From Nitrosopumilales archaeon (GTDB lineage Archaea; Thermoproteota; Nitrososphaeria; Nitrososphaerales; Nitrososphaeraceae): DNA of 64,000 nt. The notes below the pieces were generated by a model that worked only from the letters and a program-made list of their open reading frames with translations, was not told where the DNA came from and did no database searches. The DNA is taken from positions 57,258-121,257 of the forward strand of contig JBIQJB010000003.1 in assembly GCA_044507735.1 (NCBI GenBank). Direction: 5' to 3'. Shown piece by piece: positions 2,910 through 27,761 of the stretch. A program made the position numbers and the translations under genes. How positions within the stretch are numbered: position 1 is the stretch's first letter; each line of letters starts with the position of its first letter.

Positions 2910-4127
2910 TCAGCTCTTCAGTATCATGTTAAACAGTTGTCTTGCGACAAGCTTGGGATGGTGCAAAGCAAGTTTCATCATCTTGCCCGTCGTAAAGTCG
3001 GCCTTGATAAAGTCCAGAAATTCGTCGACGGTCATGTCTCTAAGGATCTCTATCTCACGGTCCCACTGTTCATCAGACAGGCCAAGCCAGCGGGTCTGCA
3101 CTTTGAGCGCAGACTGGATCTTGGATTCAACTTTTGCCTTCCAGACCTTCTCATATTCCATTAGAGACTCTCTTGTAGAATTGCTCGCAAGAGACCTTGC
3201 GCCCACTTCTCCGGCTAGCCTGCCAAATTCTATCGCATAGCGGATGCCTTCCAGCACGAGCGGATTTGACTGCCCTGCAGAGTCGCCCACCATGATTAGA
3301 CCATCCGTGATGCTATCCTGGCGGACCCCTTCATTTGGGATAAAGCCATAGTGCAGTTCTATGGGCTGTATTTTTCCAATGGCGTCAAGAGGCTTTGGCC
3401 TCTTTTCCAGAATCTGGTGCAGTTTTTCAAGTGGGTCAGCGCTCGATTCCGGCCTTCCTATCCCTACTCCAATCCTTACCCTGTTCTTTGACAGCGGGAA
3501 AATCCACGCATAGCCGGCTTCAGAGTACTGCTGCCCGATCATTAGAACCCAGGTTGCGCTGTCGATTTCATCGCAGTAGCACTCGTACTCTGCACCAACC
3601 CCATAACGCCTCCATTCACCCACAGCCCCTGCCCGGCGCGCCACAGAAGCAGAAAAGCCACTTGCGTCTATGACAAGTGTTGAACGTACTATCATGTCGC
3701 CCTTGGGCGTGCTTGCCTTTACGCCGGCGATCCTGCCATTGCCTTCCTTTATTACGTTTATCACATTGCTCCTCACCATGATCGTGGCGCCGGCCCTTGC
3801 TGCCATAAAGGCAAGGTGCTGGTATGTTGCCCTCACGTCAAGCACACACGATCTTGGAGTATTTCCAGAGATCACGACATCGTTTGAAGGGGACACGAAG
3901 CGGTAGTTCTGCACGGGATTGTACAACCCGCTAGGGATCCCAAGCCTTTCCATTTCAGAAATCCACGTCACGCCGCTTGTCCTGACGCTGTGTGCGATCG
4001 CTTCGTCCTTTTCAAACAAGATCACCTTTGCGCCGGCCCTTGATGCGGAATATGCTGCAGAAAGCCCTGCGGGACCTCCGCCAACGACAGCAATATCGTA
4101 GTGGTGTCCTTCTTTTTCCTCTCCCAC
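2910..4127 (-). CDS. Geranylgeranyl reductase family FAD-dependent oxidoreductase
   Basis: VVGGGPAG, IDASG, GYAWIFP and VGDSAG...GIRYA motifs. Confidence 0.85.
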   Translation of the reverse strand: MGEEKEGHHYDIAVVGGGPAGLSAAYSASRAGAKVILFEKDEAIAHSVRTSGVTWISEMERLGIPSGLYNPVQNYRFVSPSNDVVISGNTPRSCVLDVRATYQHLAFMAARAGATIMVRSNVINVIKEGNGRIAGVKASTPKGDMIVRSTLVIDASGFSASVARRAGAVGEWRRYGVGAEYECYCDEIDSATWVLMIGQQYSEAGYAWIFPLSKNRVRIGVGIGRPESSADPLEKLHQILEKRPKPLDAIGKIQPIELHYGFIPNEGVRQDSITDGLIMVGDSAGQSNPLVLEGIRYAIEFGRLAGEVGARSLASNSTRESLMEYEKVWKAKVESKIQSALKVQTRWLGLSDEQWDREIEILRDMTVDEFLDFIKADFTTGKMMKLALHHPKLVARQLFNMILKS

Positions 4128-5466: not shown

Positions 5467-6876
5467 CTACTGCAGCCCCCCTATGACAGCCGTACAGCGG
5501 ATGTAGGGCCCCCCACCATCCACCTTTGCTGGCTGGTACTTGCCACAGTAGCCAGTGCCAATATCGTACTGGAACTCGTCTCCTACCATATCGACTGACT
5601 GCAGGACTTCAAATGCATTACCGGATATGCTTGCGCCCCTCATAAGCTCCTTCACTTCGCCATTTTCAACAAGGTAGACTTCTTCGGCACCAAACATGAA
5701 TTCGCCATTCGCGTCGGCCTGTCCGTTCCTTGCACCCTTGACAAGATAGCCGTGTTTGGTCTCCTTTATCATGTCGGCAAGCTTGTCTCTCCCCGGCTCG
5801 ATGAAGGTATTCCTCATACGGATCAGAGGTTCGTAGCTGTACTGGAATGCCCGAGCATTGCCGGTTGATGCAGTGTCAAAGATCGTTGCCGACTCGCGGT
5901 TGTGCAGGAAGGATTTCAATATGCCTTTTTCAATTATTGCAGTTCTCTCGGCGGAAACACCCTCATCATCCACCATTATGGTGCCGCCGGCATTGTCTGA
6001 GATCTCTGACCTGCCACTATCCACTAGTGTGACCAGCTCGCTTGCCACCTGCTGTCCAATCCTATCCTTAACCACAGAGCCAGAAAGCACGAAATCGGCC
6101 TCCACTGTGTGGCCAATGGCTTCGTGAGACAGGAGACCGACCATTGCAGGATCTAGTATTATTGTCGCCTTCTTGCCTGTGACGTGCCCGGCTTCCAGTA
6201 ACTTTGAAGCCCTTTCTGACGCAGTAATGGCATAGTCAAGATGGCTTTTCTTGAAGAGGTCGTTCCAGCCTCCCGTCACGCCGATTCCTTCATGCGCAGT
6301 CGCACTCTGACTACCCCTCTTGGCAATTGCAGAGACATTGAACTCAGGCTTTGAATCATAAATCTCGACATCTGCACCGTCGCTGTTGACTATTGCCTTG
6401 TAGTCTAGTGTTTCGCGGTAGGTACACGACGCTGCCTTGACGGCCTTGTTGCTGCGAGCAGCTTTTTCTCCCTCCCTTACGACCTTCACCTTTTGCTCGA
6501 TGTCAATGTCAGATAGGCTCCCATTAGAAGGCGCCCTGAAGGTCCCTGTAACCATCTTTGAATCGGCCAGACCCTTGACCCTGTTCTTCTTTGTCTGTGC
6601 GAGGACGCTTGCTGCCGAAATTGCTTGAGCAAGCGATTCTTTCAACAGCGAAAGGTCGTTGGTGCTGTTAAAGCCCCAGCAGCCGTCCACCAAAACCCTG
6701 ATGCCACAGCCAGCAGTCTCCACCATCCTTACCCTTTCAAGAGTGCCGTTGACAAAACTGACTTCGGTGGTAAGCTTTGAATGGTAGCGCGCCTCCACAT
6801 AGCTCGCGCCTCTTGAAGTAGAAATCAGCGATCTGAGTCGATCGATTGCGCTGGCATCATCGTGCATCACGTTCAT
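5467..6876 (-). CDS. tldD: TldD family metalloprotease
   Basis: HEAIGH, DDEG, RMRNT and C-terminal CGK.Q....GGP motifs. Confidence 0.92.
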   Translation of the reverse strand: MNVMHDDASAIDRLRSLISTSRGASYVEARYHSKLTTEVSFVNGTLERVRMVETAGCGIRVLVDGCWGFNSTNDLSLLKESLAQAISAASVLAQTKKNRVKGLADSKMVTGTFRAPSNGSLSDIDIEQKVKVVREGEKAARSNKAVKAASCTYRETLDYKAIVNSDGADVEIYDSKPEFNVSAIAKRGSQSATAHEGIGVTGGWNDLFKKSHLDYAITASERASKLLEAGHVTGKKATIILDPAMVGLLSHEAIGHTVEADFVLSGSVVKDRIGQQVASELVTLVDSGRSEISDNAGGTIMVDDEGVSAERTAIIEKGILKSFLHNRESATIFDTASTGNARAFQYSYEPLIRMRNTFIEPGRDKLADMIKETKHGYLVKGARNGQADANGEFMFGAEEVYLVENGEVKELMRGASISGNAFEVLQSVDMVGDEFQYDIGTGYCGKYQPAKVDGGGPYIRCTAVIGGLQ

Positions 6877-6924
6877 GTTCCAGTCGCTACATTATCTGTA
6901 TATCTGTATCTTTTTATTATATTA

Positions 6925-7329
6925 TTATTCCAGCCAGTAAGTTTTACCTGGCTTCTTGATCTGGTAGTGTGCAAACGTGCTCCCCTTCACTGCGCCGTGC
7001 CAGTGCCACTTCCAAGCTGGGATGCAGACAAAGTCTCCTTCTTCCAAGTAGTGCACTTCATCCATCTTGACGGTAGCGGTGGTGTCATTCTCCATTCTGA
7101 CGGCAGTCTGCAGCGCAACGACTCCTGTCCCTTTGGTTGCGATCAATACCTGATCTGTCTCATGGTAATGAAGCTTGGTCCTCGCACCGTCGATGAATGT
7201 TACAAGGAAGGTCTCGACTTCCCGTGTCAGCGCATCAGTTATCATTTTCTTTATTTCGACCCTACCTTCAAAATAGTTCTGCATCGATTGATCCAAAGCC
7301 ACTTGCGCAATGTTCGATTTTTGCATCAC
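6925..7329 (-). CDS. Cupin domain protein
   Basis: HYHETDQ and IPAWKWHWHGA cupin motifs. Confidence 0.85.
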   Translation of the reverse strand: MMQKSNIAQVALDQSMQNYFEGRVEIKKMITDALTREVETFLVTFIDGARTKLHYHETDQVLIATKGTGVVALQTAVRMENDTTATVKMDEVHYLEEGDFVCIPAWKWHWHGAVKGSTFAHYQIKKPGKTYWLE

Positions 7330-10203: not shown

Positions 10204-10620
10204 CTATTTTGCTGCATCAACCAGCTCTGAAAGGTGCTGCAGGATCCGGATATGGTGCTCCTCATCAACGCTGATGCTCTTTAGCAACTCGGCAGTTTCC
10301 GGGTCGTCCGCCAGCTCGGCACATCGCAAGAGAGTGTCTCTTGAGTTCTGTTCGTCCTTGATCGATTCGGCGATCCCCTTCTTGGTGAGGCTAGCGCTGC
10401 CAGTGGCCCCTTCGATGCCAGCCATTATCTTAGAGATATACTCGATATGGCGCAGTCCGTCTGAGAGCAGAGAGTGCAGGTAGCTTCTGACAAGGTTATT
10501 CTCAACGGTCGTAAGCACTGACATGTAATGCATGAGTTCCTTGACTTCAGCGTCGTGCTGTTCCTTTAGCATCGAGTAGAGCTTTTGTTTCCGTTCCATC
10601 TGTCTGAGCCGCGAATCCAT
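10204..10620 (-). CDS. Ferritin-like/rubrerythrin-like four-helix protein
   Basis: Paired E...DxxxH (DGLRH) and E...DEEHH motifs. Confidence 0.7.
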   Translation of the reverse strand: MDSRLRQMERKQKLYSMLKEQHDAEVKELMHYMSVLTTVENNLVRSYLHSLLSDGLRHIEYISKIMAGIEGATGSASLTKKGIAESIKDEQNSRDTLLRCAELADDPETAELLKSISVDEEHHIRILQHLSELVDAAK

Positions 10621-10713
10621 CCTTGGCTCTAAGATGGAATAGCCTGCAATAAAAAAATGGTGGTCGTGTCTGTTGTACGTTTAAATAACTTCTCCAGCAT
10701 GTTCCTGCTGCAC

Positions 10714-10842
10714 TTGGCGTCGATACAGAGTATCTGTGACTGCCCCTGCCACAAAAAGTATGGCGACAAGTCAATCTGCGGGAAATGCGTCGACCGACAC
10801 AAGACCTCTCCTTACTACCACATCCTCAAGAAATTCGACTAG
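10714..10842 (+). CDS. Small Cys/His-rich putative zinc-binding protein (~42 aa)
   Basis: CDCPCH...CGKC...H; TTTAAATA at ~10680 lies ~27 nt upstream of TTG 10714. Confidence 0.55.
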   Translation: MASIQSICDCPCHKKYGDKSICGKCVDRHKTSPYYHILKKFD

Positions 10843-10886
10843 CTAGCCTCGGCATCATTAAAATATTATCATCTCATATTTGATAT

Positions 10887-12104
10887 GTGAAAGCCTCAAC
10901 CCTCCTGATTATTGCATTGATAGCAGGTGGCGCGGTGGCGGTATTTGCCCTTGTTGCGAGCCAGCCGCAGCCCGACCGTAACATAATAGGTGGCGGAATT
11001 GTTGATGGTGGCGAATCGATTCAAGTTGTCTTTGAAAATGCCACGAATTTGACTGACAATCAACAGGACTCTGTCTATGGCCAGGTCGCGGCTTGGAACA
11101 ACAGCGTGTATGTCATATGGCAGGATTCCGTCAGTGGGAGGAATTACGACATCTTTATCAAGAAAAGCATCGACAATGGCACGACCTTCGGATCGCATAT
11201 CAATCTTAGCAATAACTCTGGCTTCTCTGAACATCCCCAATTGTCAGTGTATGGAAGCAACGTGTATGCAGTGTGGACGGACAACACCCCAGGTAATAGA
11301 GAGATTCTTTTCTCGAGAAGCACAGACAATGGAACCAGCTTTGAACCCATACAGAACCTCAGTAGAGACAGTTCTGACTCGTACAACCAAGAGATAGCTG
11401 CCCATGGAGATAAAGTGTATGTAGTGTGGCTCGACCGGAACATGGAAGATGGCTCGCGCATCCTCTTGAAGTCGAGCATTGATAGAGGGGCGACCTTTGG
11501 AGAAACAGTAGAAATAAGCGACATAGCAGACATTGGTTCTTTTCCCAAGGTCGCAGCATATGGAAACAATAGTGTCTATGTGACTTGGAATGTATTGAAT
11601 AGTGGAAGCGATGATGGACTTTACTTTGTAAAAAGCTCCGATGGCGGGAGGACATTTAGCAACCCCCTCAAGCTTACTGACAGCGCAGGTGAGTCACAGG
11701 TTGCCGCTTACAATGGGACAGTCTTTGTGATATCGGGAGGTCTTGATCCTATAGATATTAGCGGCTTCTACTTCTTCAAGAGCATTGACGGCGGAGAGAC
11801 ATTCGCTGACCCGCTCCTGATTGATGCAAATGGAGTATTTCTAAACCCCACTAACGTCGAAATTGCCCCGGTGAGCAGTGATCTGGCATATGTTGCTGGG
11901 CAGGTCTTTGCAGACGGCAACGAAGAAATCCTTCTTTTGACCGTCGATGGTGACAACGCTACTGGCACGGTAAACCTGAGCAAAAACGCAAAGATATCCG
12001 AGTGTCCGTCGATTGCAATAGCTGGCAATAACATCTATGTCGTATGGGAAGACATGACTCCCGGCAACCATGACATACTATATGCGAGAGGGAGCAAGAC
12101 CTGA
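10887..12104 (+). CDS. Secreted or membrane-anchored BNR/Asp-box beta-propeller (sialidase-like) protein
   Basis: N-terminal hydrophobic segment; five S-x-D-x-G-x-T/S-F Asp boxes. Confidence 0.85.
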   Translation: MKASTLLIIALIAGGAVAVFALVASQPQPDRNIIGGGIVDGGESIQVVFENATNLTDNQQDSVYGQVAAWNNSVYVIWQDSVSGRNYDIFIKKSIDNGTTFGSHINLSNNSGFSEHPQLSVYGSNVYAVWTDNTPGNREILFSRSTDNGTSFEPIQNLSRDSSDSYNQEIAAHGDKVYVVWLDRNMEDGSRILLKSSIDRGATFGETVEISDIADIGSFPKVAAYGNNSVYVTWNVLNSGSDDGLYFVKSSDGGRTFSNPLKLTDSAGESQVAAYNGTVFVISGGLDPIDISGFYFFKSIDGGETFADPLLIDANGVFLNPTNVEIAPVSSDLAYVAGQVFADGNEEILLLTVDGDNATGTVNLSKNAKISECPSIAIAGNNIYVVWEDMTPGNHDILYARGSKT

Positions 12105-12361
12105 AGATTTGAAAAAAGGTGCGGGATTATAGTTTAGCACTCTTATTCACACCTGTACTGCAGCTGCATCATTATAAAAATTTCCTTGAGCATATGCTAT
12201 ACAATAACTGAGAATTATGTTTCGATTTTGACTGGCTTAACAGAATGTAGTTAGCCTATAGGATAATAATACATGTGTAATAGCATTAAGTTAAAATAGA
12301 TTTTGTTGTGGCGAAAAGATAAAAAAGAAAAGTGAATTTTCTTGTACGGGTATTATGGCTG

Positions 12362-12997
12362 CTATCTTATAGTTTGCGCGGCTTGTATTAGCTCTGACAG
12401 CGGAACGTATCCTTGGAACAGGTATGCCGTACTATTATTTACTACCATAGACAGCTCGGCTGGTACTGCTTCTGTTGATCTAGATATTTCTTTGTGATCG
12501 CTGTCCTCTATTACAACTATTCCTGCGTCAGGACCACCCTCTTTGCCCCAAGCAGGATTGTTGTTTATTGTCAGTGTCCTCGGCTGAAGATCAGGCCTTT
12601 TTGCCAAGACAGCAGCGTTTAGCTCTTCGTAATTCTTCACTGGATCGAGTCCTGATGTTTTTGGTTCTATCGTAATATGTATAGTATCTCCATTCCTTGT
12701 GGCGTTGTCTAGATTCTCTTTTACGAATACAGGTTGTTTTGAGTATATCAGGTGTACAGAGCTTGGTTCCGCGAATATGCACGCCAAGTGTCTGTCGCCG
12801 ATGGTTGAGGGCGGCATTGTGTAATTGAATGCTGCTACAGTTCTAGCAAAGTCCGAAGCTAAACATCCTGTCATATCGGGCGTACTGCTTAGCGAGTTTG
12901 AAATTACTATGCCTGCCATTATGGAGATGGCTGCTACCGCGATGCCTACTGGGATTAACACTTTGGAACTTTTGTTCAATTGCATTTCTCTTTTCAT
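12362..12997 (-). CDS. Membrane-anchored hypothetical protein with DUF4367-like C-terminus
   Basis: N-terminal TM helix; ends AYLFQGYVPLSELIQAAQTI. Confidence 0.6.
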   Translation of the reverse strand: MKREMQLNKSSKVLIPVGIAVAAISIMAGIVISNSLSSTPDMTGCLASDFARTVAAFNYTMPPSTIGDRHLACIFAEPSSVHLIYSKQPVFVKENLDNATRNGDTIHITIEPKTSGLDPVKNYEELNAAVLAKRPDLQPRTLTINNNPAWGKEGGPDAGIVVIEDSDHKEISRSTEAVPAELSMVVNNSTAYLFQGYVPLSELIQAAQTIR

Positions 12998-13001
12998 CCT
13001 C

Positions 13002-13841
13002 CTAATCTACCGCATCTGTCGATCCCAATCCAGAACATGAATTGGATTCGCCAGTCGGTGTGGGCGGTCCCATATGTGCAGTGACATCTGTATGCATGTG
13101 TACATAGTATGGCGAGTTTGTCGTGCATAGATTTGTCTGAGTCTGGTATCCCCAGCTATTCCAATTGCTTGTTGTTGTTTCCTTTCCGTATACGTTTTGA
13201 TAGTACTGTGCATTGGTTGAATCACCTAAATAATTGCTACTAGATGTTGTCCATGCCGATATGCGTGGGTGTCCTAAATGAAATTTTGTAAATGTCACAA
13301 AGTCATTGTACAGCGTCGTACCCCCAGTTGTCTTTACAAATCTGGCCCAATCATTCCCTGTTTCATCGTTGGCTGTTCTATATACCAAGAATGACCTTGT
13401 TATTGGTTTTGACGTGCTTGTCTCATCATACGCAAGTGTGTAGACTTTGTAGCTAATGGGTATGTCGTTCATGTAAAACGCATCCCATGTTCTCCAATTT
13501 CCACCTGCATCTTTCATTTTCAACCAGCCTGATCCTACTGCACCTACGTTACTTTCATCTGCGGCATGGTAGTACGATATGTAGCTTTCATATAAGCAAT
13601 GTGCATCGAGATTACTGCAGGTTATGCTGCCCGGATTTAGTACATTTAACCAGCCTTTGACTCCTCCCATTATCTGTCTTCCATCATGTTTCTCCCAATC
13701 AGATCGGTAAGCCAAGGCGGACGGAATGGCACTCGCTCCTACTAAGGAAATAACAAGGGCCATAGCCAAAATAACATCCACTTTTGCGAACCTGGCCGTT
13801 GGTGATGACATGCCAGTACTCTTACTGGATTCACCTGTCAT
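13002..13841 (-). CDS. Secreted hypothetical protein (possibly neprosin-like beta-sandwich)
   Basis: Signal peptide ending ALA; aromatic/Ser/Thr-rich, four Cys; 4 nt from the downstream gene. Confidence 0.6.
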   Translation of the reverse strand: MTGESSKSTGMSSPTARFAKVDVILAMALVISLVGASAIPSALAYRSDWEKHDGRQIMGGVKGWLNVLNPGSITCSNLDAHCLYESYISYYHAADESNVGAVGSGWLKMKDAGGNWRTWDAFYMNDIPISYKVYTLAYDETSTSKPITRSFLVYRTANDETGNDWARFVKTTGGTTLYNDFVTFTKFHLGHPRISAWTTSSSNYLGDSTNAQYYQNVYGKETTTSNWNSWGYQTQTNLCTTNSPYYVHMHTDVTAHMGPPTPTGESNSCSGLGSTDAVD

Positions 13842-14197
13842 TATTATTTAATATAACATGGAACTAGTTAAGGATGTTGGCTATTTATGGATGTCAGTGA
13901 TTGCATATTTCCAGATAGGGAAACTAATCAGAACTAAAAATGAAACGAATTCCGTCCAGCGGTGGGCTTTGTGGAAAAAGCAATAACCCATAAAAATAAA
14001 GTCATGCGTACAAACAGCTATCTGAGCACAATCTATCGACTTTTTAAACAAAGCCTCCAGCGGTGATATTATTATCTTATTTCCATTAAACATTTATCCA
14101 AATGAAAGCCGCTATTTGGGTAAAATCTTAAATATAGTGCATCAAACGTTTCGATACCTGTTCATTAGCAGCACCGCTTTGAGTAACCAGCAAATTT

Positions 14198-14485
14198 ATG
14201 AATATTGAGATTATTAACTCATGCAGGGTTTCTAATATCATCATGGTACGCTTTGCCGAAGACAAGAACTTGGATAGTGCAATGAGACAGTTGTAAGAAT
14301 TCAAGATTTTAGAATATGTAGAAGCTGGCGACAGTTACCAGTCCACGCACGCATTCCGCGAATTTGTAAAGAAGCTCTATGATATATGGTCTGCGGATCC
14401 CGATTCGTTTCCATTCAGAGAAGAAGGAAATAACAGCGTGGACGATTTCTTTCTTTGTTTATCTGATAGAGCAATACGTAGGGCG
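14198..14485 (+). pseudogene. Decayed hypothetical gene interrupted by the IS
   Basis: Frame MVRFAEDKNLDSAMRQL*EFKILEYVEAG... has TAA at 14294 and then stays open up to the IS left end. Confidence 0.4.
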
Positions 14486-14559
14486 TGGTCCGGACCCATC
14501 TAGAATGAGAACACCCGTCAATGGAGACATTTTTACTCCACAAGTAGGAGGTCTGACAT

Positions 14560-14853
14560 ATGCCGGGTGGTAAATGGACAGCCGACGACAAAATACGGAT
14601 AGTGTTGGAATCGCTGACCACAAACATCACCGTAGCCGAGCTCTGCCGCAAGTACAACGTAAACCCAAACCAGTACTACGTCTGGAAGCAGCGCTTCATC
14701 GAAGGAGGCGAGCTGGCACTGACCAGTACAAAACAGGAAAACGTCAACAAGGACCTGGCTGCAGAAAACGAGCGCCTGAAGAAGCTGATTGGCGAGCTGA
14801 CCATAGCCAACGACGCGTTTAAAAAAACGTTAGAGGCAGGGAGGAGAGGCTAG
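14560..14853 (+). CDS. IS3-family transposase OrfA (HTH)
   Basis: KWTADDKIRIVLES...VAELCRKYNV...YYVWK and coiled-coil ENERLKKLIGEL. Confidence 0.9.
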   Translation: MPGGKWTADDKIRIVLESLTTNITVAELCRKYNVNPNQYYVWKQRFIEGGELALTSTKQENVNKDLAAENERLKKLIGELTIANDAFKKTLEAGRRG

Positions 14854-15555
14854 CTGTGGTACAGGAAATGAAGGACAGTGGCCTGAGCCTGAGAAAGGCC
14901 CTTGACTATGCAGGATGCAGCAACAACCTGTACTACTGCCACAAACCAGAACCGCGAGACATTCCATTGGATCAGAAGATACTGGAAAAGACCAAGGAGA
15001 TAGCTGCACAAAGGCCAACCTATGGTACAAGGAGGATGGCTGCCATGCTCAGCCGGGAGCTTGGCATACCTGTTAACAGAAAGCGGGTGCAGAGAATATT
15101 CCGCAGGCTGGGCTATGTTACACCATCCAAGACAAAGCGGGAAATCATACGTGCGAAGGAAAAGCCTGTGAAAGCTACGCGGCCAAACGAGGTCTGGGAG
15201 GTGGACATGACGTACATCTGGTGCGGCATCGATGGCTGGGGCTACCTGTTCAACGCGTTCGACGTGTACACGCGGGAATGGCTGGGCTACTGCTTCGACC
15301 TGTCTGCAGTCAAGGAGAACGCCATAATATATCGGTAGAGAACGCCCTGGTGAGCCATGGCGACGTGGTACCGGAAAGGCTGACCATACGCGCAGACAAC
15401 GGCTCGCAGTACACATCAAATGCATGCAGGCTGAAGCTGCCATAAAAGAAGCGTTCCTTGACTACAACCAGTACAGGATCCACTCTTCACTGGGATACCT
15501 GACACCGTACGAATACGTCGCAAAGTGCAAAACACAGGTGATAAATAGTGCCTGA
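14823..15555 (+). pseudogene. IS3-family transposase OrfB (DDE), frameshifted and deleted
   Basis: YGTRR, WEVDMTY, DNGSQY and YN..RIHSSLGYLTP present; extra TA at ~15330; segment with the catalytic Glu missing at ~15426. Confidence 0.85.
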
Positions 15556-16122
15556 AAGTACCCCTAAAATGATGGAAAAACCGTTCTCAAAGTACGGGGT
15601 CCACTCCAGTTGGGAAGCTTGTGGGAGCTGTTGACAACAACAAAGAAAAAGAGATCAAGGACGTACTTTTGAAATAAGAACCAGCAAATACAAGACAAAA
15701 TAATGTCGTGTGTTTGTGAACGCAAAGGTAGACAATCAACAGAAATGGTAACGCAATGATGAGCAAAAAACGACAGCAGAAAGCAAAGCGAATCTTATCA
15801 TACAACGTAGTTGAGCAAAATGAAAATGTATGATAAGGTAAAAGAAAATTGGACATGAAAATGGATAATGCGGGGAGGATCTCTGGCACCAACAACAATC
15901 GACCTTCTGACATCAAGAGTCCGTGTAATATCTTTGCCATTCTGCCGCATAACTACAGCAAGCGCTGAAAGTGCAAGACCTGTGCTTTTTGGCAGCAATG
16001 TCCTTTTGATTCGATTCAGTGTCCATAACCAAGCTTTGACAGACAGGTCTCAAGGTCGTTGGATCAGTTCTACTTCTGACCCTACGATCATTGAGGGCTA
16101 CGGTCCCTGCGCAGGATGCAAC

Positions 16123-16423
16123 TGGCACCACTAATCCCCAGATATGCCTGGTGCCACTTCTGGTGCCAAATAGTACATCCATATCATCCTGCAAGTTGGC
16201 ACCATGGTGCCATTTTTTGATACCAGAGCTTGGTTCTGGTGCCAAACATGACGCTGGTATCATCCATTTTGGCACCACTGGTGCCACATATTCACGCTCT
16301 GGTGCCAAAAATGATACCACTGGTACCACGCAGACTGCACAGATGTAACTGAAAATGAATCGATTTGTCTAAAGATGGGTTTGGTGCTACTGCACCCCGC
16401 CTGTTCTGGTACCGGTGGTACCA
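16123..16423. repeat. Array of ~16 octamers (TGGTGCCA/TGGCACCA/TGGTACCA/TGATACCA), direct and inverted
   Basis: Copies start at 16123, 16149, 16161, 16197, 16205, 16218, 16237, 16255, 16270, 16279, 16300, 16312, 16321, 16382, 16407 and 16416. Confidence 0.9.
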
Positions 16424-16666
16424 ACGGAGGAAGCAGGCATTGCCTGCAATCAGGTTTCGTTCGGTTGTTTTGTTGATTAATATTTTCAACATTACTAATA
16501 ACAATTAGAATTAATAAACATGTTTGTAAGTAAAAACACAAGAGTCTTGCTAATAAATAGCAAATTTCACACATGAATCATGCCAATAGACAACTCTGGA
16601 ACAGCTGTGATAATCCGCAAACCCGGCGCAACTTTTCTGCCTTAAATTCCTACAGTGCTGTAGTAT

Positions 16667-16909
16667 TTGGAGGTGAATGATGCAACCACAGAGGAAACCG
16701 TAAACGATGGTTCTGGTAGGCAGACAAGAGTCAGAATCAACACAGAAATAGAAGGCGAGCCGGCAAAGATACTGCTTGAGCTGAAGCAGCGAGGCCTTGT
16801 TTCAGACAACACCGATGCCGTCAACCAGGGCCTGCTTGTGCTGTACGATAGAACGTTAAGGCGGGACCTGGCTAGACTTCAGCTGCAGCGGTTGAAAGAT
16901 CTCCAGTAG
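16667..16909 (+). CDS. Small ribbon-helix-helix-like DNA-binding protein
   Basis: Strand RVRINTEI followed by two helices (AKILLELKQRG, NTDAVNQGLLVLY); start uncertain. Confidence 0.55.
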   Translation: MEVNDATTEETVNDGSGRQTRVRINTEIEGEPAKILLELKQRGLVSDNTDAVNQGLLVLYDRTLRRDLARLQLQRLKDLQ

Positions 16910-18644
16910 ATGCAATCTCCCCTTTTTCCTTCCCCTCCCCTTCTTTGTTGTCCCTTGCTGATTCCAGCTCTTCTTCAAACTTGAACACGCTGCTATTGGT
17001 TTTGATTGCCCGGTCCAAGACATCTTTTGCATCTTCTGGTTTCTCCCATACCGCGTCAAGCATCCTTCTGACATCGCGCTCGTCCCTTGTCGCCTTGCAT
17101 ATCTTTTGTACCGTCGCATCTTTTGGCACACCTTTGTCGCGTAGTTTTTCATTGAAATTGGATGCCCTTAGCAGCTGAACATTCAACCTTTCAGCGTACT
17201 GGGCCAGTGTGATTGTACTGTCGCTGTTATCTTTGCTATTGACCGTTGACACCTTTACGTGGATGTCCTCAAACGCTCCGCCGGCAAACACTCCTACAAC
17301 GCCGTTCTTTACCTGCCTTCCCTCCGGAGTGTCGACGCCAAAGTCGGTGCTCCATTTCAGCACGTTGAAAAAGTCATCCAAGTCCCTTCTGCTGACAATT
17401 CCCCACTTGCATTCCAAGACATATGTGACAGGCTTGGCAAACACTGAAGGCGTAACAGTCCATACCCTGTCAACTTCGGCATTCTGCCTCCTGTCGCCCA
17501 CACTTTTAATCAAATGTAGCGTAATTCTCCTTGGATCCATTTTTCTGCTACCATTGCTTTTACTACCGTTCTGCCTATGATTCTGCGTCCGAAATTCAGC
17601 CCCTATGGTGAACTTATCAATGAACCATTCAACACAGGCTTCCCAGTTGTGGCCAATGCGGTTTGCCCTCCCCTTGCTTATCCTGATGTAGTTTTTTGCC
17701 ATCTCCAAAGAAGCGTGTAGGATCTCCACATTCATTGATTCGTGGTAGTAGTATCTGTAGGCGTCAAAGAGCTTGACCTCTTTGATAGATGGGTAGAGCT
17801 GCATGGCTCGAATAATAGCCGATTCGGCTTCTGTGTCTGTAGTTGATTTGAGCATGTCTTTGATCTGGTTTACGCTTGTGATTCTGCCAAGCTCTGTTTC
17901 ACTTACTATCAGGTTCCTTATCGCCAATACACGCTGTACCAAAGGGTTAGTAGATGCATTATCCTTCAGTGCTTCGTTCGTACGCATGACAGCTTGCTTT
18001 AATGCATCAAGGTCATTGCTGCCATCCTGCTGCTCAATCCATGTAATCAAATAGCCTTCCTGAAATGGTGACTGTGAGTCATGCGTCTGGTATCCTCTCA
18101 CATAAAGCAACCCTTTCTTCTCGTACCTCCTTGCAGTTGTCATGATGTCCGGCATCGTAACTCCTTTTTCTTTCAATGCGTTGAAAATTTCAGTGGAATA
18201 GAATGCCCTGTCTGAATTCTCTTTCAGAAAATTCAAGACAAGCTGGGCTTTGCTTTTGCTGCCCCTATTTCCCCTTTTGTCAGAGTATTCAGGGCTGAAT
18301 TGAACGAATGTGTGGCCGTCAAGGAAAATGGGGTTATTGTTTGTAGTTTCTCCACCTGTGTTTTCTTCCCCTTGCCCCATTTGGTCATTGATCATATATA
18401 GGTGAAACATACGCGTATTGCTCTTGAAACCAGCTCTACCCTTGAACTGCTTGCTGTACTCAAACAGTGGCTTGTCTGTCCTTAAAATAGGGTATTTTCT
18501 CCACAGGTTTGATAGCAGATGTGACATGGTCTTTTCGTCAATGCCGGTAGCGTTGATGATGTCCCTAGCAGATTTTGGCTTGCCATCTGCTAGTGCTGTC
18601 AGTACAGCTTTTACACAATATTCTCTGTCATGTACAGCCATCAT
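16872..18644 (-). CDS. Multi-winged-helix protein with C-terminal PD-(D/E)xK (Mrr-like) endonuclease domain
   Basis: Two or three wHTH-like units, then GHNWE...EVD...VLECKW...VSRRDLDDF. Confidence 0.7.
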   Translation of the reverse strand: MMAVHDREYCVKAVLTALADGKPKSARDIINATGIDEKTMSHLLSNLWRKYPILRTDKPLFEYSKQFKGRAGFKSNTRMFHLYMINDQMGQGEENTGGETTNNNPIFLDGHTFVQFSPEYSDKRGNRGSKSKAQLVLNFLKENSDRAFYSTEIFNALKEKGVTMPDIMTTARRYEKKGLLYVRGYQTHDSQSPFQEGYLITWIEQQDGSNDLDALKQAVMRTNEALKDNASTNPLVQRVLAIRNLIVSETELGRITSVNQIKDMLKSTTDTEAESAIIRAMQLYPSIKEVKLFDAYRYYYHESMNVEILHASLEMAKNYIRISKGRANRIGHNWEACVEWFIDKFTIGAEFRTQNHRQNGSKSNGSRKMDPRRITLHLIKSVGDRRQNAEVDRVWTVTPSVFAKPVTYVLECKWGIVSRRDLDDFFNVLKWSTDFGVDTPEGRQVKNGVVGVFAGGAFEDIHVKVSTVNSKDNSDSTITLAQYAERLNVQLLRASNFNEKLRDKGVPKDATVQKICKATRDERDVRRMLDAVWEKPEDAKDVLDRAIKTNSSVFKFEEELESARDNKEGEGKEKGEIASTGDLSTAAAEV

Positions 18645-18790
18645 ATACTACACTCTCCTGCAAATTTAAGACGGAGATATGAGTTCGAACGCCTGTCTGT
18701 ATTGTACAGTGCCGCAAAAAATCGATCTCGGTTATTCTTGCTTGTTTGCCCTAAAAGAGCAAGAATATTGCTCCTTTGGACAAAGTAAGA

Positions 18791-18878
18791 TGGTGCGGGA
18801 GGAGGGATTTGAACCCTCGAACCCCTAAGGGATAAGAGCCTCAGTCTTACGCCTTTGGCCAAGCTGGGCGACTCCCGC
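18791..18878 (-). tRNA. tRNA-Leu (anticodon GAG), CCA encoded
   Basis: GCGGGAG acceptor stem, TAAGA-CTGAGGC-TCTTA anticodon arm, long variable arm, GGTTCAAATCC T-arm, 3' ACCA. Confidence 0.97.
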
Positions 18879-18976
18879 TCCTGTTCGCTAGTTAACACGC
18901 TTTCCTCCCGCTAATTTGAATATTGCGTGGAAATGGTTTTTATAATGCCTGAGGACACTGACATCAGCAGAAGAAG

Positions 18977-19213
18977 ATGCTAATCCCGGTTCGTTGTTTC
19001 ACCTGTGGCAAGCCTATTGCGGACAAGTATGGCGAGTATTCAAGCCGCGTAAAGGCAGGAGAGGATCCAGCAAAGGTCATGGACTCACTAAACATCAAGC
19101 GCTACTGCTGCAGGAGAATGTACATCTCTAGCGTTGAGACCATCTACCAGATTATCCCATATTACGAGGCACTCAGAAGGCGCATGTCCGAGATCCAGTC
19201 TGAAATAGAATAA
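18977..19213 (+). CDS. rpoN: DNA-directed RNA polymerase subunit N (Rpo10)
   Basis: [11 protein letters not shown]...RYCCRRM. Confidence 0.97.
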
Positions 19214-19259
19214 TTTTAAACAAATAATAAATAACGTCAGAATCTGGTCACACTTGTAT

Positions 19260-20507
19260 ATGCCTTCTATAACTGCAGTTAGAGGTAGAATAGTTTTCAA
19301 CAGCAGAGGAAGCAAGACTATTGAAATTGACGTTGCAACTGATAACAAGTTCATAGGACGAGCGTGTGCGCCATCAGGGGCGTCTGTTGGCAAGTTCGAA
19401 GCTCAGAGCTTTCCAGATAACAAGCCAGAGAAAGCACTGGCGGCGTTCAATGCAAATTCCAAAAAGTTTGTCGGTTTGGAGGCGGAAAACATGAAAGCGA
19501 TATTCGACGCCCTTCGATCGGTTGACAATACTGATAACTATTCCGTTATCGGAGGATCGGTTGCGTACGCGCTTTCGATCGCAGCAGTTGATTCGGCCGC
19601 CAAGGCACTCGATGTCCCGCTCTTTAAGCTGCTAAAACCATCCAAGCCCTACAGGTTCCCCTTCCCGCTTGGAAACATTCTTGGCGGAGGAGCTCATGCA
19701 GGTCCTGGAACTCCGGACATCCAAGAGATTCTGGCCTGCCCAATTGGCGCAAAGAACATGATCGAGGCGCTGGAGATGAACTTTAAGCTGCATGCAGAGA
19801 CCCGCAAGGTGATAGAATCCATTGACAAGCGGTTCACATATGGCAGGGGCGATGAGGGTGCGTGGGCGCCAAACGTGAACAACGACCAAGCCCTCGAAAT
19901 CGTGGAAAAGGCAGCAAAGAACTGCGGATACACTCTCGGCAGTGACATGGCCATTGGAATTGACTTTGCAAGCTCGTCATTCTGGGACGAAGAAGAGCAG
20001 GTTTACAACTATGCAAGGCAAGGACTAAAGCGCGACACTGGCGAGCAGATCGAGTTTGCAAGTAGGTTGATGCGCGACTACAAGCTCGTATATGCAGAAG
20101 ACCCTGTGCACGAAGGCGATTTTGAAAGCATGGCGGTGCTCACCAAGAAGAACCAAAAAACGCTGGTGACAGGCGACGACATGCTAGTCACCAATGCCAC
20201 CAAGGTGAGAGAGGCTGTAAAGTACGGCGCATGCAGTGGAGCGATACTGAAGGTCAACCAGGCAGGGAGCCTGTATGACGCGATGAAATTTGCCGAAGAA
20301 TGCACCAAGAATAACATCAAGATAATCACTTCCCACAGGTCAGGCGAATCAGTCGACTCGCACATTTCACACATCGCAATTGCTACGGGCTCCAAGATGA
20401 TCAAGACAGGAGTCCTGGGTGGCGAGAGGGTTGCCAAGCTAAACGAGCTTGTGCGCTTGACAGAGTATGATTTAATAGAAGGTATGGCGGAACTGACCTC
20501 TGCATAA
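19260..20507 (+). CDS. eno: Enolase
   Basis: NSRG, PSGAS, GDEG, EDP, GDD, LKVNQ and SHRSGE motifs. Confidence 0.95.
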   Translation: MPSITAVRGRIVFNSRGSKTIEIDVATDNKFIGRACAPSGASVGKFEAQSFPDNKPEKALAAFNANSKKFVGLEAENMKAIFDALRSVDNTDNYSVIGGSVAYALSIAAVDSAAKALDVPLFKLLKPSKPYRFPFPLGNILGGGAHAGPGTPDIQEILACPIGAKNMIEALEMNFKLHAETRKVIESIDKRFTYGRGDEGAWAPNVNNDQALEIVEKAAKNCGYTLGSDMAIGIDFASSSFWDEEEQVYNYARQGLKRDTGEQIEFASRLMRDYKLVYAEDPVHEGDFESMAVLTKKNQKTLVTGDDMLVTNATKVREAVKYGACSGAILKVNQAGSLYDAMKFAEECTKNNIKIITSHRSGESVDSHISHIAIATGSKMIKTGVLGGERVAKLNELVRLTEYDLIEGMAELTSA

Positions 20508-27005: not shown

Positions 27006-27761
27006 TTGCATACGCGCATCCAAATACCCACTAATCACCCACGTGCAAAATCCCTGCATACGCGCGAGGCGCTGGTCGATGGATACCGGCGCGGACTTGT
27101 GGCGGCAGAGGGACTCATAGCACACGGCAGAGGAGAAGCCTATGACTACCTTCTTGGCGAACGTACAACTAGGACTGCCCAACGGGCCATCAAGGCAGCA
27201 GCCGCAATGCTATTACTCTCAAAAAAACCGGTGATTTCAGTCAATGGCAACACAGCTGCGCTCTGCCCAAGAGAAATTGTGGAGCTGGCCAACCATACAG
27301 GCGCGGCTATCGAAGTCAATCTCTTTTACAGGACAGAAGAGAGAGAACAGGCAATCAAGGCCGAACTTGAAAGGCACGGCGGTCGAAATATACTTGGCGT
27401 TGGTCCGAGGGCATCTGCAAGAATTCCGGAACTTCAGAGCGAGCGCAGGCGCGTCGACCCGGAGGGGATTTATGTTGCTGATACGGTGTTTGTGCCGCTT
27501 GAAGATGGCGACAGGACAGAAGCGCTTGCAAGGATGGGCAAGAAGGTAATAACGGTTGACCTAAACCCGCTTTCCAGAACTGCCAGGACGGCACACATAA
27601 CCATAGTCGACAACATCACAAGGGCGATGCCAGCCCTGATAGAAACAGCCAGAGAGATAAAGGCGAGCAGGTCGCTGAAAAAGATCGTCGAAAGCTTTGA
27701 CAACAAGAAGAACCTTCTCGAGTCCACCAGGATAATCAGAAGAGCGGGAGGTGCGGGATGA
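27006..27761 (+). CDS. 4-phosphopantoate--beta-alanine ligase (phosphopantothenate synthetase)
   Basis: [23 protein letters not shown] and DLNPLSRT motifs. Confidence 0.93.

Follow-up and report, generated by a model that had tools for sequence, protein, structure and literature searches.

Genes for tRNA are classic landing sites of integrative elements and, to our knowledge, every well-understood integration into them is the work of a tyrosine or serine recombinase, of a DDE transposase or of Cas1. We describe here an element that sits at the 3' end of a tRNA-Leu(GAG) gene in a 64,000-nucleotide (nt) stretch of archaeal DNA (contig JBIQJB010000003.1; hereafter the window, by which we mean the whole of this stretch), and that represents a widespread archaeal family found at tRNA 3' ends with base-pair precision, without such enzymes, in at least four major archaeal lineages. 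Its hallmark is a gene for a 590-amino-acid (aa) protein with predicted winged helices and a PD-(D/E)xK nuclease domain, which occupies the slot beside the tRNA where an integrase is expected, as a reading of the window made from its letters alone (the sequence-only reading) had pointed out.

Two groups of described elements come closest. As far as the accessible part of their catalogue goes, tRNA-integrating archaeal elements of the pNOB8 and SSV types likewise target the tRNA 3' end, are bounded by direct repeats that include this end, carry their signature gene next to the attachment (att) site and vary in cargo (Krupovic et al., 2019; PMC6563490). Unlike elements with a tyrosine integrase, however, the six complete elements delimited here encode none, and their repeats measure 7-9 bp, against mostly 11-46 nt in the accessible part of the att table of the same survey. 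Tn7-family transposons, including archaeal ones that target tRNA genes, are similar, according to the available part of a recent preprint, in having a PD-(D/E)xK nuclease (TnsA) in their machinery, asymmetric ends and a short target duplication, in their site- and orientation-specific insertion beside tRNA genes, and in a cargo that often consists of defence genes (bioRxiv 10.1101/2025.07.27.667033). In contrast to these, our elements have no TnsB, TnsC or TniQ (Pfam finds no rve/DDE domain or AAA ATPase except in an IS3 remnant), their duplication is 7-9 bp instead of the 5 bp of Tn7, they are inserted at the last base of the tRNA and not at a distance from it, and their ends do not begin with TGT or TGA. 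The element thus resembles both tRNA-targeting integrative elements and Tn7-type transposons, yet falls outside the definition of either, as it lacks an integrase and TnsB, TnsC and TniQ and its duplication has a different length from that of Tn7. A further parallel is offered by the R2-type restriction-like endonucleases and the homing endonuclease I-Ssp6803I, where a restriction-fold nuclease sets the single conserved RNA-gene target of a selfish element; the elements studied here, in contrast, lack a reverse transcriptase and are not set in an intron or intein, and R2 is among the weaker matches to the fold of the nuclease (VIA-align Z 5.0). In line with the sequence-only reading, which had called the family uncharacterised, the literature searched contained no description of it and no mention of the locus tags NTE_02457 and Ngar_c24170; this literature included the accessible parts of PMC6563490, PMC4158269 and the Tn7 preprint, with subscription journals and bioRxiv supplements outside its reach. 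The supplementary tables of PMC6563490, as far as available, list neither NTE_02457 nor an N. evergladensis element at tRNA-Leu or tRNA-Ala.

The window element extends over positions ~12127-18791 (6.7 kb) and abuts the last bases of tRNA-Leu(GAG), the sole tRNA that ARAGORN calls in the window, which is co-directional with the 590-aa open reading frame (ORF) and ends 146 nt before its start codon, close to the ~150 nt given in the sequence-only reading. We are highly confident that this is a discrete mobile element at the tRNA 3' end, with conserved asymmetric ends and a flanking repeat. Its defining features are, in window coordinates:

18791..18878, minus strand: tRNA-Leu(GAG), the insertion target, at whose 3' end the element begins (ARAGORN; Rfam RF00005, 49 bits)
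18792..18800, minus strand: left direct repeat TCCCGCACC, the last tRNA bases plus CC (exact-match search; empty-site junction comparison)
18645..18790, minus strand: conserved left end and spacer (…TCTTACTTTGTCCAAAGGAGC…), with a hairpin with a T-run and then a TATA-like box (alignment across copies)
16872..18644, minus strand: the 590-aa gene, with three predicted winged-helix domains, a long helix, a PD-(D/E)xK core (E335, E390, D392, E411, K413) and a C-terminal helical bundle
12127..12153, minus strand: conserved right end GGTGTGAATAAGAGTGCTAAACTATAA, directly before the distal repeat (motif search)
12118..12126, minus strand: right direct repeat TCCCGCACC, followed by T-rich sequence that resembles the sequence after tRNAs at empty sites

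The six complete elements, namely that in the window, one formed by contigs C35 and C49 of genome G000, and those at loci L009, L012, L014 and L043, measure 4.4-8.4 kb and share homologous asymmetric ends and a fixed orientation; no terminal inverted repeat was seen in them. Each is flanked by a repeat that matches the local tRNA end, with a length of 9 nt in the window, 8 in C35/C49, 7 in L009, 8 in L014, 7 in L012 (GTCCACC, at tRNA-Ala) and 8 in L043, a distant thaumarchaeal metagenome-assembled genome (MAG) that has a related right end and a repeat of its own tRNA, GGGCCCGC. The right-end motif was matched at 12127-12143 (minus strand) in the window, on C6, C27 and C49 of G000, and in L009, L012 and L014. 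At the other end, the TATA-like box at 18662-18670 is conserved among copies, and related left-end motifs were found across phyla. The sequence TCCCGCACC occurs three times in the window, against 0.39 expected; its third occurrence, at 27750, was rejected as a border, as it has no element context and is attributable to chance. Neither the window nor the downstream sequence of any locus contains a repeat of the tRNA 3' end that reaches 13 nt; the true repeats are only 7-9 bp long and were found solely through comparison with empty sites.

Such empty sites, present in relatives for three different tRNAs, confirm the insertion. At tRNA-Leu(GAG), the empty locus L048 of genome G050 joins window position 10841 to position 18784, directly beside the tRNA. 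At tRNA-Ala(GGC), the occupied L012 reads ...GGTCCA/CCATCTTACTTTG (with a slash at the junction) and the empty site on C2 of G000 reads ...GGTCCA/CTCTCT; flank homology returns 5.5 kb downstream in L012, right after ...TAAACTATAACA-GTCCACC. At tRNA-Leu(UAG), the site is empty in G014 and G039 (...CCCGCA/CTTTT or ...CCCGCA/CTATT) and occupied in G000 (...CCCGCA/CCATCTTAC, C35 with C49), where the distal end ...GAGTGCTAAACTATAAT-CCCGCACC/TTTTTT falls exactly where homology to G014 returns.

Some peculiarities of these sites were recorded alongside. Directly behind its tRNA, the site in G050 (contig C17, ~10470-10480; window 18781-18793) retains CCATCTTACT, which equals the initial 10 nt of the element's left end and contains the stop codon of the neighbouring convergent gene; either the loss of an element left it as a scar, or it is the ancestral flank from which the element end derives. 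The gene for a BNR/Asp-box-like secreted protein of 405 aa (window 10887-12104) lies outside the element, between its right end and the conserved neighbour gene, and is a separate indel, as it is absent from the same place in G050. In G039 (L060, contig C14), the flank that follows the tRNA-Leu(UAG) island on its downstream side in G000 and G014 sits upstream of the tRNA and inverted; one breakpoint of an inversion lies at this tRNA.

The association with tRNA genes extends far beyond the window. We surveyed 39 homologous loci from other genomes of Nitrososphaera, Bathyarchaeia, Hadesarchaea and Heimdallarchaeota, calling tRNAs with ARAGORN with introns allowed; 36 of them were informative and three were not. 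In 29 of the 36, a co-directional tRNA ends 130-190 nt upstream of the gene; the link to tRNAs and mobile elements is very strong. ARAGORN placed a tRNA end 35-191 nt before the called start in 22 of the 39 loci, mostly at 131-191 nt, the few shorter gaps being due to over-extended start calls, and in seven further loci the tRNA 3' end is truncated where the contig stops or is left as a fragment. Close relatives differ in tRNA isotype (Ala, Leu, Phe and Ser all occurring within one small clade), and other copies in the same genome as the window sit after Ala(TGC) and intron-bearing Leu isoacceptors.

Many of the element-adjacent tRNAs are intron-bearing (C31, C35 and C40 of G000; L010, L011, L013, L020, L024, L029, L032, L040, L044 and L045), and ARAGORN at its default misses such genes or mislabels their isotypes, for example Leu-like genes as Cys, Glu or Pro. 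In the bathyarchaeal locus L016 (~5790-5830), only a 3' tRNA fragment (T-arm and acceptor end) lies upstream, with an OLD-family nuclease gene before it, which fits the expected remnant of tandem island accretion at one tRNA, and in L010 the 3' part of tRNA-Leu recurs in inverted orientation and without a mismatch over 39 nt (2227-2265), ~3.5 kb upstream from the occupied tRNA; this copy is either another intron-bearing tRNA-Leu gene missed by ARAGORN or a stray att fragment. A CCA after the discriminator was considered as a general signature of the elements. It holds in G000, where by eye, among 35 ARAGORN predictions, only the three tRNA genes next to elements, and perhaps tRNA-Pro(GGG) on C43, encode it; it was rejected as a criterion because tRNA-Leu(GAG) encodes CCA in all four genomes examined, whatever its occupancy, and because in two genomes of Bathyarchaeia so do 15 of the 29 ordinary tRNA genes.

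Within the elements, the nuclease gene is the only universal gene and lies next to the att site. A Pfam scan of 26 cargo ORFs from five complete elements, of the other ORFs of the window element and of the three ORFs of L043 identified no integrase, transposase or other DNA enzyme, except for the IS3 remnant in the window, and no methyltransferase was found by Pfam in the window element or in four other complete elements, as the sequence-only reading had already noted for the neighbourhood of the gene.

The 590-aa ORF is intact and starts with ATG. We modelled its product with AlphaFold2 on 21 homologues. In the model (predicted local distance difference test, pLDDT, of 79), three helix-helix-helix-strand-strand units, at ~aa 7-85, 132-202 and 258-301, cover all three peptides quoted in the sequence-only reading as winged helix-turn-helix (wHTH)-like and are followed by a long helix, after which come a core rich in beta strands and a tail of helices. 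Winged-helix families of Pfam are matched by many of the 21 family members (MarR_2 and TrmB by 12 each, HTH_24 by 11), whereas scans of the whole 590-aa protein against Pfam, NCBIfam, PADLOC and PDB sequences returned no significant match, and profile searches against PDB sequences gave only weak winged-helix matches for A1 and none for the C-terminal domain. The best Foldseek matches of the whole model are tandem-winged-helix proteins (TFIIIC tauB, RPC62, RPC34) and FokI (1fok_A; 517 columns, E 1.8e-4, template modelling score, TM-score, of 0.15), with TM-scores that are low throughout, as expected of a flexible multidomain chain.

The nuclease domain (the C-terminal 270 residues), folded alone with a 29-sequence alignment (pLDDT 86, predicted TM-score, pTM, 0.82), matches almost exclusively PD-(D/E)xK nucleases. 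Foldseek assigned MspJI a probability of 1.0, and VIA-align gave Z-scores of 9.2 for AF1548 (141 aligned), 8.0 for Can2, 7.9 for NucS, 7.0 for LlaBIII, 6.9 for AspBHI, 6.3 for both MspJI and XisH, and 6.2 for FokI. Residues H332, E335, Q354, H356, R357, E390 and D392 are invariant in all 21 sequences and K413 is nearly so, while E411 of the 'ECK' motif is replaced by serine in three. The catalytic positions fall on a helix (306-345) and two strands (388-397 and 406-417) of the model, giving the glutamate on the first helix, the acidic residue on strand 2 and the (D/E)xK on strand 3 that make up the PD-(D/E)xK signature. By its modelled fold, with an alpha-beta-beta-beta-alpha-beta core, and by its motif, the domain thus belongs to the PD-(D/E)xK superfamily, so that both the intact-looking motif set and the restriction-endonuclease fold anticipated from the sequence are borne out. 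The three winged-helix domains are predicted to bind DNA and the PD-(D/E)xK domain to cut it.

In its overall layout the protein recalls FokI, where several winged-helix-like recognition subdomains are followed by a C-terminal PD-(D/E)xK cleavage domain, and the reading of a site coupled to a cut at a fixed distance, as in FokI, would explain a junction at a constant position of the tRNA. It differs from FokI in the absence of sequence similarity and in the low TM-score, and from FokI and type IIS restriction-modification (R-M) systems in general in having no methyltransferase partner and in being encoded at the end of a mobile element instead of in an R-M operon.

The account towards which we lean, and to which we give somewhat less than an even chance, is that the 590-aa protein is the element's own site-specific insertion nuclease. 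Its winged helices would bind to something that tRNA genes share (the T-arm/acceptor end) and/or to the ends of the element and an octamer array described below, and the nuclease would cut with a stagger at the 3' boundary of the tRNA gene; the element would then be joined there, either through repair by the host or by a copying process with another copy as template, producing a short target duplication, and a small partner protein and the octamer array, a mimic of the junction GCACCA, may regulate or assemble insertion. As one option, this could follow the logic of FokI: binding of the winged helices to the conserved T-arm/acceptor box would set the place, a fixed distance away, where the nuclease cuts. 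The T-arm/acceptor-end sequence is read by eukaryotic TFIIIC as the B box. More tentative still is the broader proposal of a new class of insertion enzyme, in which a winged-helix nuclease would read the T-arm/acceptor end of tRNA genes and place a recombinase-free element at the last base of almost any of them, with a FokI-like fixed-distance cut and with the array and an internal tRNA-end mimic as arm-type sites, the elements being ancient, horizontally transferred carriers of defence or other cargo across Thermoproteota and Asgard archaea. Tyrosine recombinase matches (PF00589) are fewest in those genomes that have the most copies of the gene, with two weak ones in G000 (29 and 21.5 bits; 4-5 copies) and one below the cut-off in G028 (two copies). 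Among the roles suggested in the sequence-only reading, the last, an origin-binding or nicking protein for replication or mobilisation of the element, comes closest to this anatomy in its mobilisation part, although the borders, the direct repeats and the multicopy nature of the element had escaped that reading.

Several points weigh against a self-encoded insertion nuclease. We know of no PD-(D/E)xK nuclease that integrates DNA alone; TnsA depends on TnsB, and hydrolytic nucleases perform no strand transfer. A repeat of 7-9 bp, a fixed orientation and asymmetric ends would equally be expected from a short-overlap tyrosine recombinase, and a classical integrase is found at the same tRNA-Leu(UAG) site in G014. 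In three of the 39 surveyed loci (L023, L030 and L033), which are among the seven that have no tRNA, a tyrosine integrase gene lies ~40 nt upstream. No right end was found within the ~6 kb available for the loci from Bathyarchaeia, Hadesarchaea and Heimdallarchaeota; since the bathyarchaeal loci yielded none, the full anatomy is established for the thaumarchaeal branch only. Judging from their sequence divergence, the copies are old, and they are orthologous across species, so that they give no sign of recent movement. Contigs from four runs of four studies, compared with window 10500-19600, contained neither a circle junction nor an empty-site joint, but contigs drop rare variants and the comparison could not exclude such forms; the loose contig ends seen at 12112-12154 are the right ends of paralogous copies. 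Likewise, 46 pattern matches in viral contigs included no relatives, in a search that could not exclude free forms.

Part of this evidence would suit a different arrangement, in which a tyrosine or other conventional recombinase, acting in trans or since lost, integrates the element and the wHTH-nuclease is an accessory, be it a directionality or regulatory factor, an addiction nuclease checked by the small partner, or an end-processing nuclease. This is the main competing account, although we consider it rather unlikely. The repeat has the overlap length typical of tyrosine recombinases, the integrase genes of L023, L030 and L033 lie directly upstream of the nuclease gene (with the small partner ORF just before the integrase in L023 and L033), the integrase-bearing island of G014 uses a site that our elements also use, and XisH, a factor that controls excision, is among the fold matches. 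Fixed orientation and a tRNA 3'-end target are also found in the catalogued thaumarchaeal elements, within the accessible part of that catalogue (PMC6563490). Yet none of the six complete elements has a Pfam-recognisable recombinase, the integrase-linked copies form one derived clade nested among the tRNA-adjacent ones, G000 and G028 offer only weak PF00589 matches at or below the cut-off, and it is the nuclease gene, not an integrase gene, that holds the att-proximal position at a constant distance; moreover, an enzyme acting in trans would be needed across four phyla. As regards addiction, a toxin-antitoxin pair would be a co-directional operon whose antitoxin binds the toxin directly; the genes for the nuclease and the small partner are convergent in the window, with a 38-nt overlap.

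In G014 (L061, ~3021-3527 and 10270-10300), a tyrosine integrase gene and a 7.8-kb island that lacks the nuclease gene begin ~540 nt after tRNA-Leu(UAG), and the far border of the island, TTTCACACC/TTCTTTTTAC, repeats the tRNA end in degenerate form. This same site thus seems to serve two kinds of element.

The structural matches of the nuclease domain bear on a further possibility. The best of them are the type IV enzymes Mrr, MspJI and AspBHI and AF1548-like archaeal nucleases, and Mrr itself consists of an N-terminal winged helix and a PD-(D/E)xK domain. The gene could accordingly be imagined as cargo, encoding a defence nuclease of Mrr/MspJI-like (type IV, modification-dependent) or FokI-like kind, and its tRNA site as a reflection of defence islands at tRNA hot spots. 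Such a role, which the sequence-only reading had proposed in the form of a modification-dependent or stand-alone defence nuclease, would agree with best fold matches to restriction and CRISPR-ancillary nucleases, with weak leads (0.86) to archaeal Mrr-domain proteins in the atlas, with the lack of a methyltransferase in the element, as expected of a type IV enzyme, and with the abundance of defence systems downstream of the gene in Bathyarchaeia and Hadesarchaea, where OLD, type I R-M, GmrSD, Pycsar-type TIR, HEPN/AbiV, Schlafen and methylase genes occur. It is nevertheless improbable. The 590-aa protein has three winged helices where Mrr has one, and neither the whole protein nor any of 29 C-terminal domains matches Mrr_cat (PF04471) at E <= 1; PADLOC, a check that the sequence-only reading had called for together with DefenseFinder, was run and gave a best match that is not significant (E 0.011, 12.4 bits). 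Position relative to the tRNA, distance and orientation are invariant in the 29 loci counted above, unlike those of shuffled cargo, and the gene also occurs in elements with non-defence cargo (a peptidase, a beta-propeller protein, a P-type ATPase). It is this fixed place across phyla, in a delimited element of which it is the only universal gene, that makes a stand-alone defence reading weak and sets the protein apart from the type IV enzymes; a defence role would also leave the conserved non-coding ends and the array without a function.

The remaining features of the window element lie downstream of the nuclease gene:

16667..16909, plus strand: small partner ORF, 80 aa, convergent with the nuclease gene, whose 3' end it overlaps by 38 nt
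15884..16430, both orientations: octamer array, 12 TGGYRCCA (octamer counting)
15868..15877, minus strand: internal motif CTCCCCGCAT, a mimic of the tRNA-Leu acceptor 3' strand, beside the array and in 9/9 Nitrososphaera copies examined
14560..15530, plus strand: decayed IS3-type insertion (Pfam HTH_Tnp_1, HTH_21 and rve; the end at 15530 by eye)
12362..13841, minus strand: cargo, two ORFs (211 and 279 aa) without a family match and with N-terminal hydrophobic stretches

Homologues of the small partner ORF were found in 20 of 43 loci, Bathyarchaeia included. The sequence-only reading had labelled it a ribbon-helix-helix (RHH) gene, for which we obtained no support from Pfam (no match for 12 members at E <= 1) or from the PDB (no relevant match for the profile), the sole hint of such a fold being a beta-alpha-alpha sequence pattern seen by eye. 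A complex prediction for the nuclease and the small partner scored 0.00 against a mark of 0.32, which is evidence neither way.

The octamer array that had been noticed in the sequence is real, with 12 TGGYRCCA sites in 15500-17000 and four in the rest of the 64 kb, and gene, small ORF and array belong together in the mobile element, as had been supposed. Among 12 Nitrososphaeraceae copies with downstream sequence, nine have an array of 5-12 sites within 1.5 kb of the gene end, mostly at ~+280 to +530, and in one further copy (C49) the array is displaced by ~3.6 kb, ~3.5 kb being inserted there (L055) between small ORF and array. The six bases that close the tRNA/left-end junction, GCACCA, recur within the octamer TGGCACCA, a match with P ~0.005 for an octamer taken at random. 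The tRNA-end mimic CTCCCCGCAT also occurs in the tRNA-Ala element L012 and is part of the element; another internal sequence, CCCCCGCA, located after the array, was rejected as an inner junction, because the sequence around it is conserved and the tRNA-Ala element has it too.

A gene pair with 12 short repeats arrayed beside it also brings to mind an integrated plasmid, with the protein as a replication initiator or a partition-type protein whose winged helices would sit on the array as iterons or centromere and whose nuclease would nick the origin. Winged-helix initiators do bind iterons. An initiator of the iteron type has also been raised for a small thaumarchaeal element, in the accessible part of PMC6563490. 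We regard this as highly unlikely here: the array is confined to the Nitrososphaera branch, exact 8-mer counting detecting no octamer cluster in any of 27 non-Nitrososphaeraceae loci, the search of viral contigs returned no relative that was extrachromosomal or viral, the elements have no conserved helicase, primase or partition ATPase, and the exact junction at the tRNA end would be left unexplained.

Cargo varies between elements and includes, in the thaumarchaeal ones, a peptidase A4-like protein, a PD40 propeller, a P-type ATPase and proteins of unknown type. The IS3 remnant of the window lies between the array and the cargo ORFs and comprises OrfA (HTH_Tnp_1) and OrfB (HTH_21 and a truncated rve), frameshifted into several frames. 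Rfam recognised only the tRNA in 12000-19000, so the element contains no known guide-type RNA.

If the protein drives insertion, it would represent a new way of moving DNA, and there is a substantial chance that the enzyme embodies a categorically new insertion mechanism; it would then be a compact protein that natively targets a conserved, multi-copy site present in every genome, and thus of interest for genome engineering. Even without a role in insertion, the elements form an unnoticed class of archaeal islands, one not listed in the accessible part of the dedicated thaumarchaeal survey (PMC6563490), provide a marker gene for defence islands in Bathyarchaeia, and pose the question of which enzyme integrates them.

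The family itself is large. A word-indexed database yielded 727 homologous proteins at E <= 1e-3, and an exhaustive search of cluster representatives 403, 65 of them at E <= 1e-30, with only 'hypothetical' or 'MarR/Lrp-type regulator' as database names. Identity to the window protein is 66-89% in Nitrososphaera and ~50% in Bathyarchaeia; in single MAGs it is likewise ~50% for Freyarchaeota, 42% for Hadesarchaea and 38% for Heimdallarchaeota. Within the taxonomic family of the window the gene is patchy, occurring in 5/61 genomes and 2/18 genera, and in the family tree the Nitrososphaera copies are nested inside the diversity of Bathyarchaeia. The element is multicopy and has spread horizontally.

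The window's genome holds at least four and probably five copies, mostly at contig ends, with 83-89% protein identity; the DNA they have in common corresponds to window 16617-18836, which takes in the small convergent ORF together with the gene, the spacer and the tRNA's 3' part. Ratios of non-synonymous to synonymous divergence (dN/dS) between copies are 0.05-0.13 and dS values 0.6-1.0 (2.8 against the copy of another genus), and the copies are therefore old and under selection; several occupied tRNA loci are orthologous between species. This agrees with the remark in the sequence-only reading that the gene stays intact while its neighbours decay, as the IS3-type remnant does inside the element. 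In the same comparisons, identity over the 146-nt left end is 74-88%, against differences at 40-73% of the synonymous sites of the gene, and this non-coding end, being more conserved than synonymous sites, is thus constrained. Paralogues within a genome are closer (dS ~0.59) than copies at the same tRNA in different genomes (0.75), which suggests exchange between copies. When compared with tRNA identity, the tree of the Nitrososphaera copies is mostly without resolution, with support only for the Ala(GGC) pair (98%) and its grouping with the copy on C50 (90%).

Two copies in G000 show individual alterations. That on C49 (L055, C49:52824-54570) is split near residue 450 into two ORFs of 455 and 140 aa, by either a frameshift or an assembly error. 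Downstream of that on C50 (L053), a 1.3-kb sequence (5720-7082) matches 16 places in G014 at 74-85% identity and is probably an insertion sequence.

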